DNA of 64,000 nucleotides. Source: Collinsella sp. GTDB taxonomy: Bacteria > Actinomycetota > Coriobacteriia > Coriobacteriales > Coriobacteriaceae. Made by a program: the position numbers and the translations under genes. The stretch covers positions 22,426-86,425 of the forward strand of contig JAGZFB010000001.1 in the NCBI GenBank assembly GCA_018368055.1. The letters run 5' to 3'. Position 1 is the stretch's first letter; each line of letters begins with the position of its first letter. The notes beneath the pieces were generated by a model. The model ran no database searches. It was not told where the DNA came from and worked only from the letters and a program-made list of their open reading frames with translations. Positions 9,804 to 60,255 of this stretch are shown here, in pieces.

Positions 9804-9863
9804 CGACAAGCGGCCCACGATCAAGCCCGATCGCGGGGCTATTTCTTTGCGCTATGAGTAGCT

Positions 9864-11282
9864 CTATGAGTTGCGGACCAGCCTGGCGCAGAAGTGGCCG
9901 TCGTAGGAGTCGGCGTTTACCGGCACGCTTTGGAAGAGGCCTCGAGCGTTTTGACGCAGGGTGACGAGGCTCTTGGCATGATCGTATTCGGGGAGTTGCA
10001 AAATCTGGGCTTCGCTGAGCGGCGCCACGGCAAAGCCCTCACCCTCGGCAGAGGCCAAGAAAGCATCCACGACCTGTGTGTTCTCTTCGTCAAAGACCGA
10101 GCAGGTGGCATAGATGAGCTCACCGCCGGCAGCCACGCGCGCGGCGGCTTCCTTGAGCATCGTCAACTGCAACTTGGGCAGCTCAACCGTCACATCGTTT
10201 TCGGTCAGACGCCACGGAATCTCGGGATGACGGCGCATGGTTCCGGTGCCCGAGCACGGGGCATCGATAAAAACTGTATCGAACAGGGCAGGTTTGCCAA
10301 GCATGGCATCAAAGGACGTGAGCACCTCATTGAGCTCGCAGGCATCGCCCGAGACCGTGCGAACACCCTGGATGCCTGCCTTGCGCAGACGCGCGAGATT
10401 CTGGTCGCACTTGCGCTCGTGCAAATCGAGCGCGGTATGCTGGCGCTCGTACCCAGCACGTTTGGCCTGGCACATCATCACATAGGTCTTGGTGCCGCGG
10501 CCGGCACCAATCTCCAAGCAACGCCCGGGACGCGTCGCCGCAGTGGCGATGAGCTGGGCGTTAAGGTCTGAGGCAACGGCAGCAGCGCGCTCAAACACGC
10601 CGGACGCAACCGTGACATGCGCATCGACCGGCGCATGGCAGCCCGGAAACACGGGTGCCACAAGCTGCGAAATGTACGGATCGGGTTTGGTTGCAAAGGC
10701 GTTCTCGTGCAAAGCCAGCGGCGCAGGCGCCAGATTGCCGGCAAAGTTGAGCGCGCCCTCGGGTGTGTCGAACGATGCCATAATGCGAGCACAAAGCCAG
10801 CGCGGCAGACCCATCAGGCGCGACAGGCGAACCAGACGACGTTCGGACTCATCGGCATCCGCTGCGGCGGCAAAATCCTCAACGTTGTCCGCGACCTTAT
10901 GCAGCACGGCATTGGCCAAACCAGCGGCTGACTTAGCACCGCTGCGCACGAGCTCAACGCCCTGACTCACCGCAACACGACCCGGCGTATGCAGATAGAG
11001 CATCTCAAAGGCCGAGATACGAAGCGCCATGCGCACACGAGGCGCGACCTTTTTGGGCTTATCGAGAAACTGGTCGAGCAGTTCGTCCAAAATGCCCTGA
11101 GTGGCTGCAACGCCAAGTGCCAAACGAGCCGCAAAAGCAGAATCGCGCTGGTCAATGGCCTTGGCCGAAGCACGAGACGAGAGCACGTCGCGTGCGTACA
11201 TACCGCGGCGATCGGCCTCCATCAGCACATCGAGCGCAAGCTTGCGCGCGGGAGACAGCTTACTCACGACAAAACACCCCAC
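9864..11282 (-). CDS. rsmB: 16S rRNA (cytosine967-C5)-methyltransferase
   Basis: N-terminal NusB-like domain plus SAM methyltransferase domain with the FIDAPCSGTGTMRRHPE motif. Confidence 0.88.
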   Translation of the reverse strand: MGCFVVSKLSPARKLALDVLMEADRRGMYARDVLSSRASAKAIDQRDSAFAARLALGVAATQGILDELLDQFLDKPKKVAPRVRMALRISAFEMLYLHTPGRVAVSQGVELVRSGAKSAAGLANAVLHKVADNVEDFAAAADADESERRLVRLSRLMGLPRWLCARIMASFDTPEGALNFAGNLAPAPLALHENAFATKPDPYISQLVAPVFPGCHAPVDAHVTVASGVFERAAAVASDLNAQLIATAATRPGRCLEIGAGRGTKTYVMMCQAKRAGYERQHTALDLHERKCDQNLARLRKAGIQGVRTVSGDACELNEVLTSFDAMLGKPALFDTVFIDAPCSGTGTMRRHPEIPWRLTENDVTVELPKLQLTMLKEAAARVAAGGELIYATCSVFDEENTQVVDAFLASAEGEGFAVAPLSEAQILQLPEYDHAKSLVTLRQNARGLFQSVPVNADSYDGHFCARLVRNS

Positions 11283-12400: not shown

Positions 12401-12502
12401 GTCCCTGGGATGGGGCCCACACATATCGTCCCGCGCGCAGTTTCGCAGCGCAGCGAGAATGTTTGAGCACGGGATGATATGTGTGGGCCCCATCCCAGGG
12501 AC
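12401..12502. repeat. 33-bp near-perfect inverted repeat (1 mismatch) with 36-nt loop, between def stop and fmt start
   Basis: Left arm gtccctgggatggggcccacacatatcgtcccg (12401-12433); right arm cgggatgatatgtgtgggccccatcccagggac (12470-12502). Confidence 0.8.
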
Positions 12503-15522: not shown

Positions 15523-15610
15523 GACCCCAGCACCTCCTATCCCATACGTCTACAGAAACAAGAGCCCCGCTCGGGTGAACGGGGCTCGGATACAAACGTT
15601 TGCGCAGCGA

Positions 15611-17086: not shown

Positions 17087-17167
17087 GGAAATCTCCTCGA
17101 TTGCAGGATGGATGTCTAACCGCATCAGTATAAAGCATCAAAGCAACCTCCGCACAAAGGGCACCGA

Positions 17168-17263
17168 CCTACTCATTGGGGACAGACTTAAATGACCAGC
17201 CTTACCTGAGTGCCGACAGGTTGCCCAAAGACTGGTCATTTAAGTCTGTCCCCAATGAGTAGG
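17168..17263. repeat. 32-bp perfect inverted repeat with 32-nt loop in the gltX/metK divergent intergenic region
   Basis: cctactcattggggacagacttaaatgaccag (17168-17199) and its exact reverse complement (17232-17263). Locally AT-richer than surroundings. Confidence 0.85.
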
Positions 17264-17369
17264 TGCGGAAAGGGTGTGAATGTTTGATTTACGCGCTATG
17301 ATGTGCCCTTGCATAGAGAGCCCGGCGGAATGGTAACGGTCGCTGGGACACGTTTTTGAAAGGACAATC

Positions 17370-18650
<1,281 letters not shown>

Positions 18651-18687
18651 GCTAACTCGAAAAGCTACAGCCAAAAACAACGAACCA

Positions 18688-18727
18688 AAAGAAGTACCGG
18701 CCCCAACCGGTACTTCTTTTTTATTTA
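18688..18727 (+). terminator. rho-independent terminator of metK
   Basis: gaagtaccgg-cccca-accggtacttc followed by ttttttattt. Confidence 0.8.
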
Positions 18728-18819
18728 AACGGTGGTGAAGATGCTTCGATATGAGCCTACGCTGCGTCACCAGCTAATGAATTTTGCAGCACACGCGCCT
18801 CTACCATGTATCCTTAGTT

Positions 18820-18934
18820 CCGAGGGCTTTGGTATTTGGTCGATCGCGAGTTCCGCACGAGCCGGAGGCCACTTAATGTGGCCTCCGTGCGAGCAGGACT
18901 GTCCGAGCAGGCGACCAAATACCAAAGCCCTCGG
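18820..18934 (+). ncRNA. structured palindromic element, copy A: 23-bp perfect outer inverted repeat enclosing an approx. 70-nt conserved asymmetric core with central hairpin. It sits in the sdaA 5' region. This is a candidate ncRNA/cis element of unknown function
   Basis: Outer arms ccgagggctttggtatttggtcg / cgaccaaataccaaagccctcgg. Core atcgcgagttccgcacgagcc-[ggaggccac ttaat gtggcctcc]-gtgcgagcaggactgt. The core recurs at 56532-56603 on the other strand with compensatory changes. Confidence 0.55.
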
Positions 18935-18962
18935 GACGACGGGACAGATTAAAGGAGCAGTC

Positions 18963-25997: not shown

Positions 25998-26009
25998 GCC
26001 ACCACCAAC

Positions 26010-26078
26010 AAGTTGCGGTGAATTAGGGACTAAATATGCTATCTAGCAGCAAATACAGACACTATTTCACCGCAACTT
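26010..26078. repeat. small palindromic element of the AAGTTGCGGTGAAATAGGGACT inverted-repeat family (copy 1, imperfect), 3' of the efflux permease
   Basis: Arms aagttgcggtgaattagggact ... ctatttcaccgcaactt. Core ttgcggtgaa / ttcaccgcaa is a 13-bp perfect repeat. AT-rich loop. A second, perfect copy lies at 56749-56817. Confidence 0.7.
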
Positions 26079-26208
26079 ATTGAAGGGCTGCTTGCGCCAG
26101 TTCCGGGCGTCGTCCTCGAGCTATTGGCGGATGACGGGCTTGTACGGGTCGAGCTTGCTCGGGGCGCTCCTCTTCGCGGGCGGGAGGGCGCGCAGGCGCG
26201 GCGAGCGC

Positions 26209-46742: not shown

Positions 46743-47981
46743 ATGGGGAAATTCGTGCCGCAGCCCAAAACGCTCGGAGGGGAGTCGAACCTCGAAACCC
46801 CGGTCGAAACGCAGGCTGACGGAGCGCCGCTTTTCCGCATAAGCGACCTGTCGGCGGGTTACGACAAGAAGGTCGTAGTCGAAGGCGTCGATCTGGAGGT
46901 TCGCGCGGGCGACGTCGTGGCGCTCATCGGGCCGAACGGCTCGGGCAAGTCGACCATCTTGAAAACAATCACACGCCATCTGGCACCGCATGCCGGCACG
47001 GTCGAGCTCGACGGGCGAGAGATTTCCCGATGGAAGACGGCGGAGTTCGCAAGGAACCTTGCCGTTATGCTGACAGATCGCCCCCGGACCGAGCTCCTCA
47101 CCTGCCGCGATATCGTAGAGGCGGGAAGGCATCCCTACACCGGGCGAATGGGCACACTCACGCCCGATGACCATAATCGGGTCGACGAGGCCATGAAAAC
47201 CGCACATGTGGAAGGGCTCGCCGAGCGCGACTTCATGCAGATAAGCGACGGGCAACGCCAGCGCGTCATGCTCGCACGCGCCATCGCGCAGGATCCGCGT
47301 GTGCTCGTGCTCGATGAGCCCACGTCGTATCTCGATATCCGCTACCAGATCGACCTGCTGCGAATACTTCGCCACCTTGCGAAATCGCGGAATGTTGCTG
47401 TCATCATGTCCATCCACGAACTCGAGCTCGCGCAGAAAAGCGCCGACAAGGTGATTTGCGTGAAGGACGGCCGGGTCTTCCGCGCCGGCGCACCCGAGGA
47501 CATATTCACGCGCGAGACGATTGGCGAGCTCTACGGCCTTCAACATGGCACCTTCAACGAGCGCTTCGGCAGCGTGGAAATTGGGCGCCCACACGGCGAT
47601 GCGCACACGTTCGTCATCGCCGGCGCAGGTACGGGGTCAGCTGTGTTTCGCCAGCTCATCCGGCAGGGCAAGGCGTTCTACGCGGGCATTCTGCACGAAG
47701 GGGACATCGACTGCGAGCTCGCGCGCGACCTGGCGACGGAATGCGTGGCCGAGCGCGCCTTCGAGCCGATCGGGGATAAAACCATAGCCCGCGCCAAAGA
47801 GCTCCTCGTCCACTGCGCGCGCCTTATCGTGTGCCCCGCCGCCTTCGGCACCATAAACGCCCGCAACGCAGAGCTCGTCGAGTTCGCACGATCGCATGGT
47901 ATCGAGGTCATGCGAGCGTGCGAAGGCGCATCGGAGGATTCCAAAATTGGAGTGGGAAGGATAAACTGGACTTTCTTTTAA
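46743..47981 (+). CDS. ABC transporter ATP-binding protein (FepC/BtuD-like) with approx. 150-aa C-terminal extension
   Basis: Walker A GPNGSGKST, signature ISDGQRQRV, Walker B LVLDEPT within the first about 260 aa. An additional C-terminal domain (HTFVIAGAGTGSAVFRQLIRQGKAFYAGILHEGDIDCELARDL...) follows. Confidence 0.8.
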   Translation: MGKFVPQPKTLGGESNLETPVETQADGAPLFRISDLSAGYDKKVVVEGVDLEVRAGDVVALIGPNGSGKSTILKTITRHLAPHAGTVELDGREISRWKTAEFARNLAVMLTDRPRTELLTCRDIVEAGRHPYTGRMGTLTPDDHNRVDEAMKTAHVEGLAERDFMQISDGQRQRVMLARAIAQDPRVLVLDEPTSYLDIRYQIDLLRILRHLAKSRNVAVIMSIHELELAQKSADKVICVKDGRVFRAGAPEDIFTRETIGELYGLQHGTFNERFGSVEIGRPHGDAHTFVIAGAGTGSAVFRQLIRQGKAFYAGILHEGDIDCELARDLATECVAERAFEPIGDKTIARAKELLVHCARLIVCPAAFGTINARNAELVEFARSHGIEVMRACEGASEDSKIGVGRINWTFF

Positions 47982-48076
47982 GGATCCTCAGGCTACAGCT
48001 CCTACGCCGGCAAGGTCTCCAAGGCGCCGGAGAACCTCAGGAACAGGAATTTCCACGCCGACGAGCCCAACTAGGC

Positions 48077-50263: not shown

Positions 50264-50340
50264 TGGTAGCCCGTACCAGATTCGAACTGGTGATCTCCGC
50301 CTTGAGAGGGCGGCGTCCTAAACCGCTAGACGAACGGGCC
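50264..50340 (-). tRNA. tRNA-Glu (anticodon CUC), copy 1
   Basis: Reverse complement folds as a cloverleaf: acceptor GGCCCGU/ACGGGCU, anticodon stem CCGCC/GGCGG, loop CUCUCAA, T-arm ACCAGUUCGAAUCUGGU, encoded CCA. Confidence 0.9.
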
Positions 50341-50362: not shown

Positions 50363-50439
50363 TGGTAGCCCGTACCAGATTCGAACTGGTGATCTCCGCC
50401 TTGAGAGGGCGGCGTCCTAAACCGCTAGACGAACGGGCC
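50363..50439 (-). tRNA. tRNA-Glu (anticodon CUC), copy 2 (identical tandem duplicate)
   Basis: Sequence identical to copy 1, separated by a 22-nt spacer. Confidence 0.9.
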
Positions 50440-53058: not shown

Positions 53059-53188
53059 GAATGTTCCTTTCACGAAGCAACGTGTTAATGAAAGTATATT
53101 CCACGCATCGGTAAAAGGCTAGGACAACTCGGCGAACGGTGTGGAAGCGATGAAGTACGGCGGGACACCTCTCCCCCGCGGCGGAACA

Positions 53189-56491: not shown

Positions 56492-56643
56492 GCTTGCTCG
56501 CCCATAGGGGGCCGGGCGCGGCCTGTGAGATTTCCTGCTCTACAGTCCTGCTCGCACGAAGAGCACATTAAGTGCTCTTCGGCTCGTGCGGAACTCGCGA
56601 TAAATCTCACAGGCCGCGCCCGGCCCCCTATGGGCGAGCAAGC
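56492..56643 (-). ncRNA. structured palindromic element, copy B: 40-bp perfect outer inverted repeat enclosing the same approx. 70-nt conserved core as 18843-18911, in reverse orientation
   Basis: Outer arms gcttgctcgcccatagggggccgggcgcggcctgtgagat / exact reverse complement. The core on the minus strand reads ttatcgcgagttccgcacgagcc-[gaagagcac ttaat gtgctcttc]-gtgcgagcaggactgt. It lies between fruA and ptsH inside a minus-strand operon. Confidence 0.55.
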
Positions 56644-56748
56644 TGCGGAAACTCGGTCGGTCCAGAGCAATATCGTGCGAACGAAATTCTGGCTGATTTT
56701 TTGTTCGGCTGGTTGATCTAGTTGATGAGGTCTATCTATGCCCTTTTT

Positions 56749-56817
56749 AAGTTGCGGTGAAATAGGGACTGAATTTGGGGTTGAATCGTTTAAACAGTCC
56801 CTATTTCACCGCAACTT
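56749..56817. repeat. small palindromic element of the AAGTTGCGGTGAAATAGGGACTG family (copy 2, perfect 23-bp terminal inverted repeats, 23-nt loop)
   Basis: aagttgcggtgaaatagggactg ... cagtccctatttcaccgcaactt. Related to 26010-26078. Confidence 0.75.
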
Positions 56818-56900
56818 ATATCGGGAATGAAAAAGGCGGAGGCCCTGGAGAGGGTCTCCGCCTTTGTTGCAAGGGGCGATATTATTCGCTAGCTGCTGGA

Positions 56901-59175: not shown

Positions 59176-60033
59176 ATGACCGATAGCAGCAAGAGCGCGC
59201 TCTCCCTTATTAGCACGCACAAAGGGTACAGCGATTCCGAGCAGCGCATTGTCGACTATATATTGGAGCACCAGTCCGAGGCGCCGCGTCTGACAGCCGC
59301 CCAGCTCTCACGAGCCGCTGCCACGTCCGAGGCGACCGTTTCGCGTTTCTGCCGCAAGCTGGGCTTTGGCAGCTTCCGCAGCTTTCAGTTTTCGTTGGCG
59401 CGCGACTTGGAGAGCCAGCGCAACGAGGGCCTGACAGACGAGGTCTCGCTCGACAACATGGAGCAGAGCCTTAAAAATATCCTCGCCGCCAAGGTGAGCG
59501 AGCTTAATGCGACCATCGACGGCATTGATCACGACACGTTGGCCGCTGTTGTGCACGCGCTTAAGAATGCCGGCGTTATTGAGTTCGCCGCCGTGGGCAA
59601 TACGAACGCAGTCGCGCTCGATGCGACATTTAAGTTTTCGCAGCTGGGCCTGCGCTGTATGGCGAGCACCATCAGCGAGACATCAATCGGCTTTGCGCTC
59701 ACGTTGCGCCCCGGCGACGTTATCGTGCTAATCTCGAACTCCGGCAAGTCGCGCCGTTTGAATCGCATGGCAAAAGCGGCTCGCGGCTGCGGCGCCACTG
59801 TAGTCGTCATCAGCAGCGACAGCAAATCTCCGCTTGCGCGCCTGGCCGACTACACCTTTAATACCGTCAATCACGAGGCACTGCTGACAACGGGCGACTT
59901 CGCGTTCTCCAAGATGAGCGCCACAATGATCATAGAGGTCATCTACAACTTCCTGCTGCCCGAAATCGAGGACGCCCGAGAGCACATCAGCTACTACGAG
60001 GAGCTCATCCAGCCGGATAAGGTCGTGGAGTAG
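59176..60033 (+). CDS. MurR/RpiR family transcriptional regulator (HTH + SIS domain)
   Basis: HTH_6 (LTAAQLSRAAATSEATVSRFCRKLGF) plus SIS domain. AGGAG RBS precedes MTDSSK. Divergent from the fructose PTS operon. Confidence 0.8.
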   Translation: MTDSSKSALSLISTHKGYSDSEQRIVDYILEHQSEAPRLTAAQLSRAAATSEATVSRFCRKLGFGSFRSFQFSLARDLESQRNEGLTDEVSLDNMEQSLKNILAAKVSELNATIDGIDHDTLAAVVHALKNAGVIEFAAVGNTNAVALDATFKFSQLGLRCMASTISETSIGFALTLRPGDVIVLISNSGKSRRLNRMAKAARGCGATVVVISSDSKSPLARLADYTFNTVNHEALLTTGDFAFSKMSATMIIEVIYNFLLPEIEDAREHISYYEELIQPDKVVE

Positions 60034-60066
60034 GTAAATTGGGGAGCCGATAGACGCCTCTCGCCA

Positions 60067-60219
60067 CGAAACCCGCCCCATCTACTACGTTTTATCCGTA
60101 TGGCCCAACCACATACCGAAAATAGAGAAAACCGCAGGCGTTCTACCTGCGGTTTTCTTTTTGCAATTCTTGGCGTGGTTGCCGATAGTCTATTAAACGT
60201 AGTAGATAGGCCGGTTTCG
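60067..60219. repeat. imperfect approx. 27-bp inverted repeat (cgaaacccgccccatctactacgtttta / taaacgtagtagataggccggtttcg) nested around the bidirectional terminator
   Basis: 12-bp perfect core aacgtagtagat / atctactacgtt plus flanking partial complementarity. Confidence 0.6.
60127..60164. terminator. bidirectional rho-independent terminator between convergent rpiR-like gene and recN
   Basis: gaaaaccgcagg-cgttctac-cctgcggttttc flanked by T-runs on both strands. Confidence 0.75.
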
Positions 60220-60255
60220 TAGCGATCGGGTCGGGCATGTATGTGGCGGCTCGGC

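Follow-up and report, generated by a model that had tools for sequence, protein, structure and literature searches.

The bcr1 repeat of the Bacillus cereus group (Okstad 2004, Klevan 2007; PMC3184786) is a small (~155 bp), non-coding, multicopy and intergenic element of strain-variable distribution, and its stable predicted structure is kept by compensatory changes (PMC3184786). The same source describes two further precedents, the pneumococcal SPRITE, placed like a terminator right after stop codons, and the RPE of Rickettsia, inserted in frame in a protein-coding gene. Miniature inverted-repeat transposable elements (MITEs) such as Correia/NEMIS, ERIC and RUP consist of one long hairpin of 100-170 bp, lie at the ends of genes, are transcribed together with their neighbours and show polymorphism among strains. 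The repetitive extragenic palindromes (REPs), with BIMEs, REPINs and the RAYT transposases, are abundant downstream of genes, and REPINs are hairpin-forming doublets for which hairpin formation in single-stranded DNA is central. Here, a comparable family of hairpin repeats is described from a 64,000-nucleotide stretch of Collinsella sp. DNA (assembly GCA_018368055.1, contig JAGZFB010000001.1, positions 22,426 to 86,425; termed the window). A sequence-only reading of the window had noticed a structured module of ~70 nt twice, once in front of sdaA (copy 1) and once on the opposite strand in front of ptsH (copy 2), and had put an RNA-level function (a small RNA, processing or attenuator element) before a structured mobile or protein-binding DNA element. 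The two copies are members of a widespread repeat family, more than chance would give, and are not an sdaA-specific regulatory RNA. The evidence favours the mobile option: the modules are probably two members of a family of small non-coding interspersed palindromic repeats (MITE/REP-like) that occurs in many copies in the Coriobacteriia, mainly in Collinsella.

The kind of element is already known; its architecture, with a conserved centre and free arms, is unusual. bcr1 is conserved over its full length and has 5-bp direct repeats, whereas in the Collinsella family conservation is confined to the core, each locus has arms of its own and no clean direct duplication is seen; the two share no sequence similarity. 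MITEs have conserved, transposase-recognised terminal repeats and fixed direct target duplications (e.g. TA), whereas here the ends vary around a conserved centre and no parent insertion sequence (IS) was found in the 2.3 Mb sampled; the family is small, non-coding and multicopy as MITEs are, and lacks their conserved terminal inverted repeats. REPs are 20-40 nt long with a conserved GTAG or CGTC head, and REPINs have conserved arms and a variable loop, the reverse of the present arrangement. The likeness to RPE is seen at one locus only and that to SPRITE is one of placement; neither is related in sequence to the Collinsella family, whose hairpins are followed by no consistent U-tract. No paper on repeats, MITEs or REPs of Collinsella or Coriobacteriia was found in the literature, and the family is apparently new to description.

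The identity of the flanks in the two copies, on which the module had been defined, was confirmed by exact matching. The 21-nt flank, ATCGCGAGTTCCGCACGAGCC, matches the window solely at 18843-18863 (+) and 56581-56601 (-), and the 16-nt flank, GTGCGAGCAGGACTGT, solely at 18887-18902 (+) and 56542-56557 (-); tolerating 2-3 mismatches gave no additional window match for either. Chance would give ~0.01-0.03 flank matches, and two matches were seen in 0 of 100 shuffles. The central 9-bp hairpins, GGAGGCCAC/GTGGCCTCC in copy 1 and GAAGAGCAC/GTGCTCTTC in copy 2, do differ at three pairs, all of them compensated, around a common TTAAT loop. Perfect outer palindromes were also found as described for copy 1 (23 bp), while that of copy 2 measures 42 bp at 100% identity rather than the 40 bp first given (Table 1). 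Both copies fold with far better energy than shuffled sequence (z = -9.6 for copy 1 and -13.5 for copy 2).

By Pfam scans and gene calls, copy 1 has metK and sdaA as its + strand neighbours, and copy 2 lies on the - strand between a PTS-EIIBCA gene and ptsH-ptsI, each element lying in sense. A canonical terminator at 18687-18720, separate from copy 1, serves metK, and no sigma-70-type promoter-like site was seen within or near that copy. The motif GAGCAGG occurs twice in the 3' junction, 13-14 nt apart. The window holds three copies in all, a shortened third having been overlooked at first. Copy 3 keeps the junctions CGCGCAGTT and TGTTTGAGCA, its P2 and P3 helices are replaced by TCGCAGCGCAGCGAGAA, and it lies antisense within the def-fmt spacer. 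At this locus other strains carry a full-length core instead of the shortened centre.

Every copy forms a single long rod-like hairpin of ~100-190 bp. Its core of ~70 nt is asymmetric and strongly conserved, and comprises three helices (P1-P3), conserved internal loops and a tip. Its outer arms, 20-45 bp long, are near-perfect: the best-kept copies have 0-2 mismatches, other copies as many as 6. The arms differ by locus or subfamily, with the innermost 5-17 bp loosely common within subfamilies (GGTYN.../...NRACC). P1 pairs AGTTC with GGACT, including an invariant T·G on the + strand, and shows an A-T to G-C change in one subtype. P2 (5 bp) occurs in four mutually compensated forms (CGCAC/GTGCG, CACGA/TCGTG, CGCAA/TTGCG and TGCAA/TTGCA). 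P3 (9-12 bp) covaries freely, with four covarying pairs, under a conserved loop-closing CAC/GTG. The tip loop is TTAAT in Collinsella and CAGYG in other genera. A small peptide read from the TAATG of the loop, where the ATG is in frame with sdaA in copy 1, was considered and rejected, the CAGYG loops outside Collinsella having no ATG.

Table 1. Features of the hairpin repeat family in the window
Feature	Coordinates	Strand	Remarks
Copy 1, 5' outer arm	18812..18842	+	31-bp inverted repeat at 90% with the 3' arm, perfect over 23 bp (18820-18842 with 18912-18934); 162 nt from metK stop
Copy 1, conserved asymmetric core (type 1)	18843..18911	+	
Copy 1, P1	18849-18853 with 18896-18900	+	AGTTC with GGACT; includes the invariant T·G
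Copy 1, P2	18854-18858 with 18887-18891	+	CGCAC with GTGCG
Copy 1, bulge	18859-18863	+	GAGCC
Copy 1, P3	18864-18872 with 18878-18886	+	
Copy 1, loop	18873-18877	+	TTAAT
Copy 1, 3' junction	18901-18911	+	GTCCGAGCAGG
Copy 1, 3' outer arm	18912..18942	+	ends 21 nt ahead of sdaA ATG (18963)
Copy 2, 5' outer arm	56602..56643	-	42 bp, perfect; 258 nt from upstream gene
Copy 2, core (type 1)	56534..56601	-	P3 variant GAAGAGCAC/GTGCTCTTC
Copy 2, 3' outer arm	56492..56533	-	ends 139 nt upstream of ptsH ATG (56353)
Copy 3, short variant	12401..12502	+	arms 12401-12433 with 12470-12502 (33 bp); 3' arm ~12 nt from def stop, 5' arm ~190 nt from putative fmt start
Empty site	46773..46783	+	codons ~11-14 of ABC-ATPase gene

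The pairing-preserving covariation first seen between two copies extends to the larger family, in which P1, P2 and P3 all covary and the arms covary over their whole length. Across 23 representatives, 92% of cells pair, compared with 78% in shuffles, and the covariation score is 0.39, compared with 0.14 in shuffles and equalled by none of 500; when the test was slid out of register, pairing dropped to 33-51%. The hairpin structure is real, since pairing and covariation exceed the shuffles and the slid controls collapse. Covariation alone does not tell which molecule folds. Among the same representatives 30 double changes were counted in P3 and not one G-U cell; mismatches in the arms are G·T in 46 cases and A·C in 40, with no strand bias. 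The two strands have fold energies of -83.4 and -79.2 kcal/mol. Strand-specific hints are limited to the T·G that never varies in P1 and to a small number of G·T pairs, all on the same strand. The covariation pattern is that of a Watson-Crick DNA palindrome, unlike that of an RNA read from one strand. The proposal of selection on secondary structure is upheld insofar as pairing is maintained; the compensatory changes are purely Watson-Crick. Template switching or gene conversion could maintain a perfect palindrome, or it could be selected as single-stranded DNA, and a DNA palindrome or concerted evolution explains the compensatory changes at least as well as RNA selection does.

Many copies beyond the two first noticed were found by covariance-model and pattern scans. 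The exact two-part pattern of 22 bases, CCGCACGAGCC-N(17-29)-GTGCGAGCAGG, scanned in one genome per species, gave at least 119 loci, almost all of them in Collinsella. The non-Collinsella matches listed belong to Eggerthellaceae, Parvibacter, Paratractidigestivibacter and Coriobacteriaceae, and among the matches listed all except one chance match (L085; loci are cited by such numbers) are from Coriobacteriia. Covariance model R1 gave 193 matches across 100 loci, weak reverse-strand matches to the same elements being counted. An nhmmer profile gave 154 matches in the first 120 sequences (the 119 loci and the window) and 287 in the whole 2.3 Mb collected, a set gathered mostly around known copies, so that the match counts represent a biased density. 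A 0.9-Mb C. aerofaciens replicon (PLSDB) has the element at 11 places, none of them annotated, which suggests a few dozen copies per genome. The same 22-24 nt of core recur in relatives from the Coriobacteriaceae, Eggerthellaceae and Atopobiaceae.

Two side observations concern the distribution. Elements are frequently paired 120-300 nt apart (L083 1330-1566; L003 2211-2514; L018 7062-7440), in tandem in an Eggerthellaceae metagenome-assembled genome and in inverted orientation in Collinsella. Locus L030 (CAVHBE010000073.1), labelled Methanobrevibacter smithii, is actually a Collinsella PTS-ptsH locus carrying the element, and the label indicates bin contamination of the reference genome collection.

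The relationship between the element and its neighbouring genes was studied by grouping 131 elements into 35 locus clusters with crude open reading frame (ORF) calls, a slight over-count in which some alleles of one locus are split. Each cluster was classed by the strands of the upstream and downstream gene relative to the core. Twelve clusters were same/opposite, ten same/same, ten opposite/opposite and one opposite/same (divergent), while no upstream ORF was called in two. The orientation of the element is independent of neighbouring gene direction, and the mixed classes rule out a common cis-regulatory leader; the neighbouring genes are functionally unrelated across loci. The sense orientation to the flanking operon, described for copies 1 and 2, holds for those two copies and not for the wider family.

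A polarity is nevertheless present relative to ORF boundaries. At ~30 of the 35 loci such a boundary is found 8-25 nt (in rare cases up to ~140) from the 3' arm; it is the stop codon of a convergent gene at ~19 loci and the ribosome-binding site (RBS) or start of a co-directional gene at ~7-10. The 5' arm in every case keeps a distance of 56 nt or more from ORFs. Stop codons are abutted in reverse orientation only (~19 to 0), and RBSs or starts in forward orientation (~7-10 to 0-1). Under proper gene calls the three window copies follow this rule (Table 1). The position 8-25 nt after stop codons at ~19 loci is terminator-like, yet the tails 3' of the hairpins have no consistent T-tract. A few copies lie ~10-25 nt ahead of an RBS, as in front of an ORF that begins MEEMPKNYDPS, to which no search gave an identity. 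No shared promoter or motif was visible upstream of the 5' arm in 28 locus representatives, and no invertase or recombinase gene was seen near the element in the annotated loci.

The elements occupy many intergenic sites unrelated to one another and, in one case, lie in frame within a gene; in strain comparisons they show the behaviour of repetitive DNA. Strains that are 93-95% identical in the flanks bear unrelated arms: upstream of the MEEMPKNYDPS ORF, L035 and L041 are 93% identical over 2.1 kb and have completely different arms, with a locus-specific core subtype in common. In L071 the L041 arms form a plain hairpin that has TGGC as its loop and lacks the core; no other core-less hairpin with the arms of a known element was found in the 2.3 Mb. 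At the metK-sdaA locus the outermost CCGAGGG/CCCTCGG is constant in every strain. The 13 bp inside it differ between strains and are swapped en bloc on both arms; a remnant of the other allele's 3' arm persists in some strains, and L138 is a conversion chimera. At the ptsH locus an outer palindrome common to ten genomes holds either a type-1 element or a type-3 element with different inner arms, and in one of the ten, the complete genome CP024160.1, the type-3 core is inverted between the same arms. L092 is without the element that L080 and L116 have. Many contigs end inside an element, and L090 and L057 join arms of different loci.

A further empty site lies in the window itself, near the start of an ABC-ATPase gene. 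At this site other strains (L141, L143, L144, L146 and L149) have a 96-nt in-frame copy, antisense to the gene, which adds 32 residues to the N-terminal region. Of 120 metagenome contigs covering the site, 117 were classifiable, 81 as filled, 27 as empty and nine as carrying an additional 39-nt deletion; among the three not classed by anchor, two look filled and one empty. Mismatches in P3 and the arms of this intragenic copy are common in the population. The empty alleles (GCTCGGAGGGGA, GCTCGGAGCGGA and GCTCCGAGCGGA) are exact mosaics of the kind expected from recombination between two imperfect 12-nt flanking repeats, which favours recurrent loss, and the element at this site looks old and repeatedly lost. 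In the empty/filled pairs the flanking 12-16 nt are palindromic, and hence are imperfect direct and inverted repeats at once. An inverted target-site duplication as the signature of insertion was suggested by the L080/L092 and window/L141 pairs and was not established; it is weakened because the population's empty alleles are mosaics and the outer arm ends are palindromic.

The relationship to known RNA families was studied using cmscan with all 4227 Rfam 15 families, run at gathering thresholds on the window and at E <= 10 on both strands of copies 1 and 2. At gathering thresholds only two tRNAs match in the window, in agreement with the original statement that nothing in the sequence places the module in a known riboswitch class. 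At E <= 10 the two copies gave only spurious long-stem matches, mir-606 (27 bits, gathering 80) and h2cR (19 bits, gathering 70). The Collinsella-1 RNA motif (RF01700) is a candidate structured RNA known both from Collinsella and from metagenomes of the human gut (Weinberg 2010, PMC2864571). It was the sole Collinsella-named Rfam motif met in the literature check, and it differs from the present element in giving no cmscan match to either strand of copies 1 and 2 at E up to 10. The two tRNA matches (62.3 bits each) are identical tandem genes at 50267-50340 and 50366-50439 (-), 26 nt apart. No match was apparent between the element and the consensus sequences of K-turn, hammerhead, twister, pistol, signal recognition particle-like or group II domain V motifs.

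Against this background the rival explanations can be weighed. A cis-regulatory leader for sdaA and ptsH (a riboswitch, an attenuator or a protein-binding leader) comes closest to what the sequence-only reading had preferred. Both flagged copies do lie in sense upstream of these genes (by 21 and 139 nt), the metK terminator at 18687-18720 would place copy 1 in the 5' untranslated region (UTR) of sdaA, and a few other copies stand ~10-25 nt before an RBS. A leader is nonetheless extremely improbable: the downstream genes are unrelated, the majority of copies run antisense to the gene closest to them or lie between convergent genes, no Rfam riboswitch or leader matches and there is no alternative terminator/antiterminator pairing. 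Copy 3 is antisense in the def-fmt spacer, another copy sits inside the ABC-ATPase ORF, and beside an unchanged ptsH gene some strains have an element of another subtype, which one genome has in inverted form. The sdaA leader, attenuator or small RNA is likewise left without support by the ~19 of 35 clusters in which the element follows a stop codon in antisense, by the intragenic copy, by presence and absence between strains and by the flipped core. For sdaA and ptsH alike, a role as a signal-sensing leader is improbable. A broader RNA proposal is that of a functional structured module deployed in many copies per genome (an orientation-specific terminator or insulator, an element for RNA processing or stability, or a processed small RNA recognised by a conserved protein), with the core under RNA selection and mobility secondary. 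Such a module would fit the covariation of all three core helices, the conserved internal loops and loop-closing CAC/GTG, the 22-24 nt shared between Coriobacteriaceae, Eggerthellaceae and Atopobiaceae relatives, the invariant P1 T·G with occasional G·T pairs on the + strand, the strong polarity to stop codons (reverse) and RBSs or starts (forward), and the visible decay of the intragenic copy, where a function would be pointless. It is rather unlikely all the same. The transcribed strand would vary, being the reverse in 3' UTRs and the forward in 5' UTRs; the 28 locus representatives share no promoter or upstream motif and no consistent U-tract follows the hairpin; P3 is devoid of G-U intermediates and arm mismatches are without strand bias. 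Moreover, the element is present or absent, replaced or inverted at one locus between close strains, and arms of 40 perfect bp far exceed the need of any RNA function.

It could also be that the element is a functional site at the DNA level, either an inverton or a site presented as a cruciform to a DNA-binding protein, a recombinase or a nucleoid protein. The core inverted between identical arms in CP024160.1 is what an inverton would give, the arms are long perfect inverted repeats, GAGCAGG is repeated 13-14 nt apart in the 3' junction, and the unrelated hairpin at 17167-17264 is likewise centre-inverted in three strains. This explanation is very unlikely, as the inversion occurs in one of ten strains only and may be a passive outcome of inverted repeats or a choice made in assembly, the core is without promoter-like sequence, no invertase or recombinase gene is nearby in the annotated loci, and the half-sites of P3 covary rather than being conserved, which argues against sequence-specific recognition by a dimer. 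The reading as a family of mobile palindromic repeats has points to answer in its turn. Covarying helices, conserved internal loops, the invariant P1 T·G and 22-24 nt of core shared without change by three bacterial families are also expected of a functional RNA or single-stranded DNA, and the polarity shows that orientation matters, whereas a purely selfish symmetric hairpin does not predict the ORF-boundary rule. Of the features that define MITEs, a clean direct target-site duplication was not seen and terminal repeats are not conserved; neither a transposase or other partner nor split core halves flanking an ORF, as in an autonomous parent, were found in the sampled 2.3 Mb. The two empty/filled pairs may reflect either insertion or deletion; at the ABC-ATPase site the data favour loss. 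Finally, the inversions and chimeras come from assemblies and may in part be artefacts, so they weigh less, because assembly can mis-join repeats that exceed its k-mer length.

For the mobile repeat family, one interpretation of these data is that copies would have spread and been homogenised at the DNA level, by transposition or a template-switching process together with gene conversion between copies. Gene conversion of this sort, together with insertion or template switching at palindromes, fits the identical cores that adjoin unrelated arms, the chimeras and the block-wise change of arms. Loss through short flanking repeats would account for the empty alleles. Where transcribed, the element would be a very stable hairpin that may act, probably in a generic manner, as a terminator-like, insulating or RNA-stabilising structure at gene ends and in 5' UTRs. 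A more specific proposal, which is unlikely, is that the ~70-nt core and the short inner arms form a structure-directed mobile module that moves without an element-encoded transposase into or beside palindromes, e.g. terminator hairpins, or that builds new arms by fold-back (inverted) copying of the DNA beside it. Such a module would fit the core-less L071 hairpin with identical arms, the nested block-wise arms and the rule linking the 3' arm to ORF boundaries. The arms were also considered as captured foreign 'spacers' and this was rejected, 24 distinct arms giving no blastn match at E <= 1 in 50,697 phage genomes; the element itself has no match there either.

Other polymorphic palindromes and insertions were noted in the same genomes. 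The hairpin at 17167-17264, in the divergent gltX/metK spacer, is a 37-bp near-perfect inverted repeat around a centre of ~24-32 nt, with a sequence unlike that of the family; L136-L138 have its centre inverted, and L131 and L152 have a different palindromic element in its place. A second hairpin-repeat family with AAGTTGCGGTGAAATAGGGACT arms occurs in the window at 56738-56828 and 26006-26082, and a ~100-nt member lies between a Zn-ribbon gene and rsmB in L150-L153, L155, L156, L158 and L159, where the window has an empty site (9861-9871). Within 60032-60252 of the window, ~165 nt are not present in L140, L141, L143-L146 and L148, which have a short GGGACAAAATA-type hairpin instead; this segment has a 26-nt inverted repeat (60070-60095 with 60192-60217) at its borders and a terminator-like hairpin within. 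Indels of 120-145 nt were found at gene ends in L141/L143 (18274-18423, equivalent to window 48071-48075) and in L159 (8040-8182, equivalent to window 15529-15551), the latter being another long perfect hairpin (GGGACAAAATAATCAGTAGTGTTTGTCCCATG...). The spacers of these genomes appear to be generally rich in polymorphic palindromes. In L148 (13292-14449, CP084004.1) an IS110-family transposase gene (DEDD_Tnp_IS110 and Transposase_20) is inserted in the spacer between two pfkB genes, at the equivalent of window 53169-53173, and has no similarity to the hairpin core.

Collinsella is among the most studied gut Actinomycetota, and the reference genome collection splits it into very many species-level entries. 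Dozens of repeat copies per genome break short-read assemblies, and the family therefore matters for assembly, binning and genome comparison. The repeat seeds rearrangements and gene conversion and can sit within genes, and a hairpin of 25-45 bp after a stop codon or before an RBS can alter the expression of the neighbouring gene. For RNA discovery, the finding means that clean compensatory changes between two copies alone do not prove selection on RNA. A structured, conserved centre with free paired arms is the reverse of REPs and MITEs, and polarity to ORF boundaries is unusual; together they point to a mechanism of mobilisation or maintenance not yet described. If the structure-directed module were true, the repeat would be more than passive DNA: its core would work as an active nucleic-acid machine or as an RNA signal that depends on orientation.

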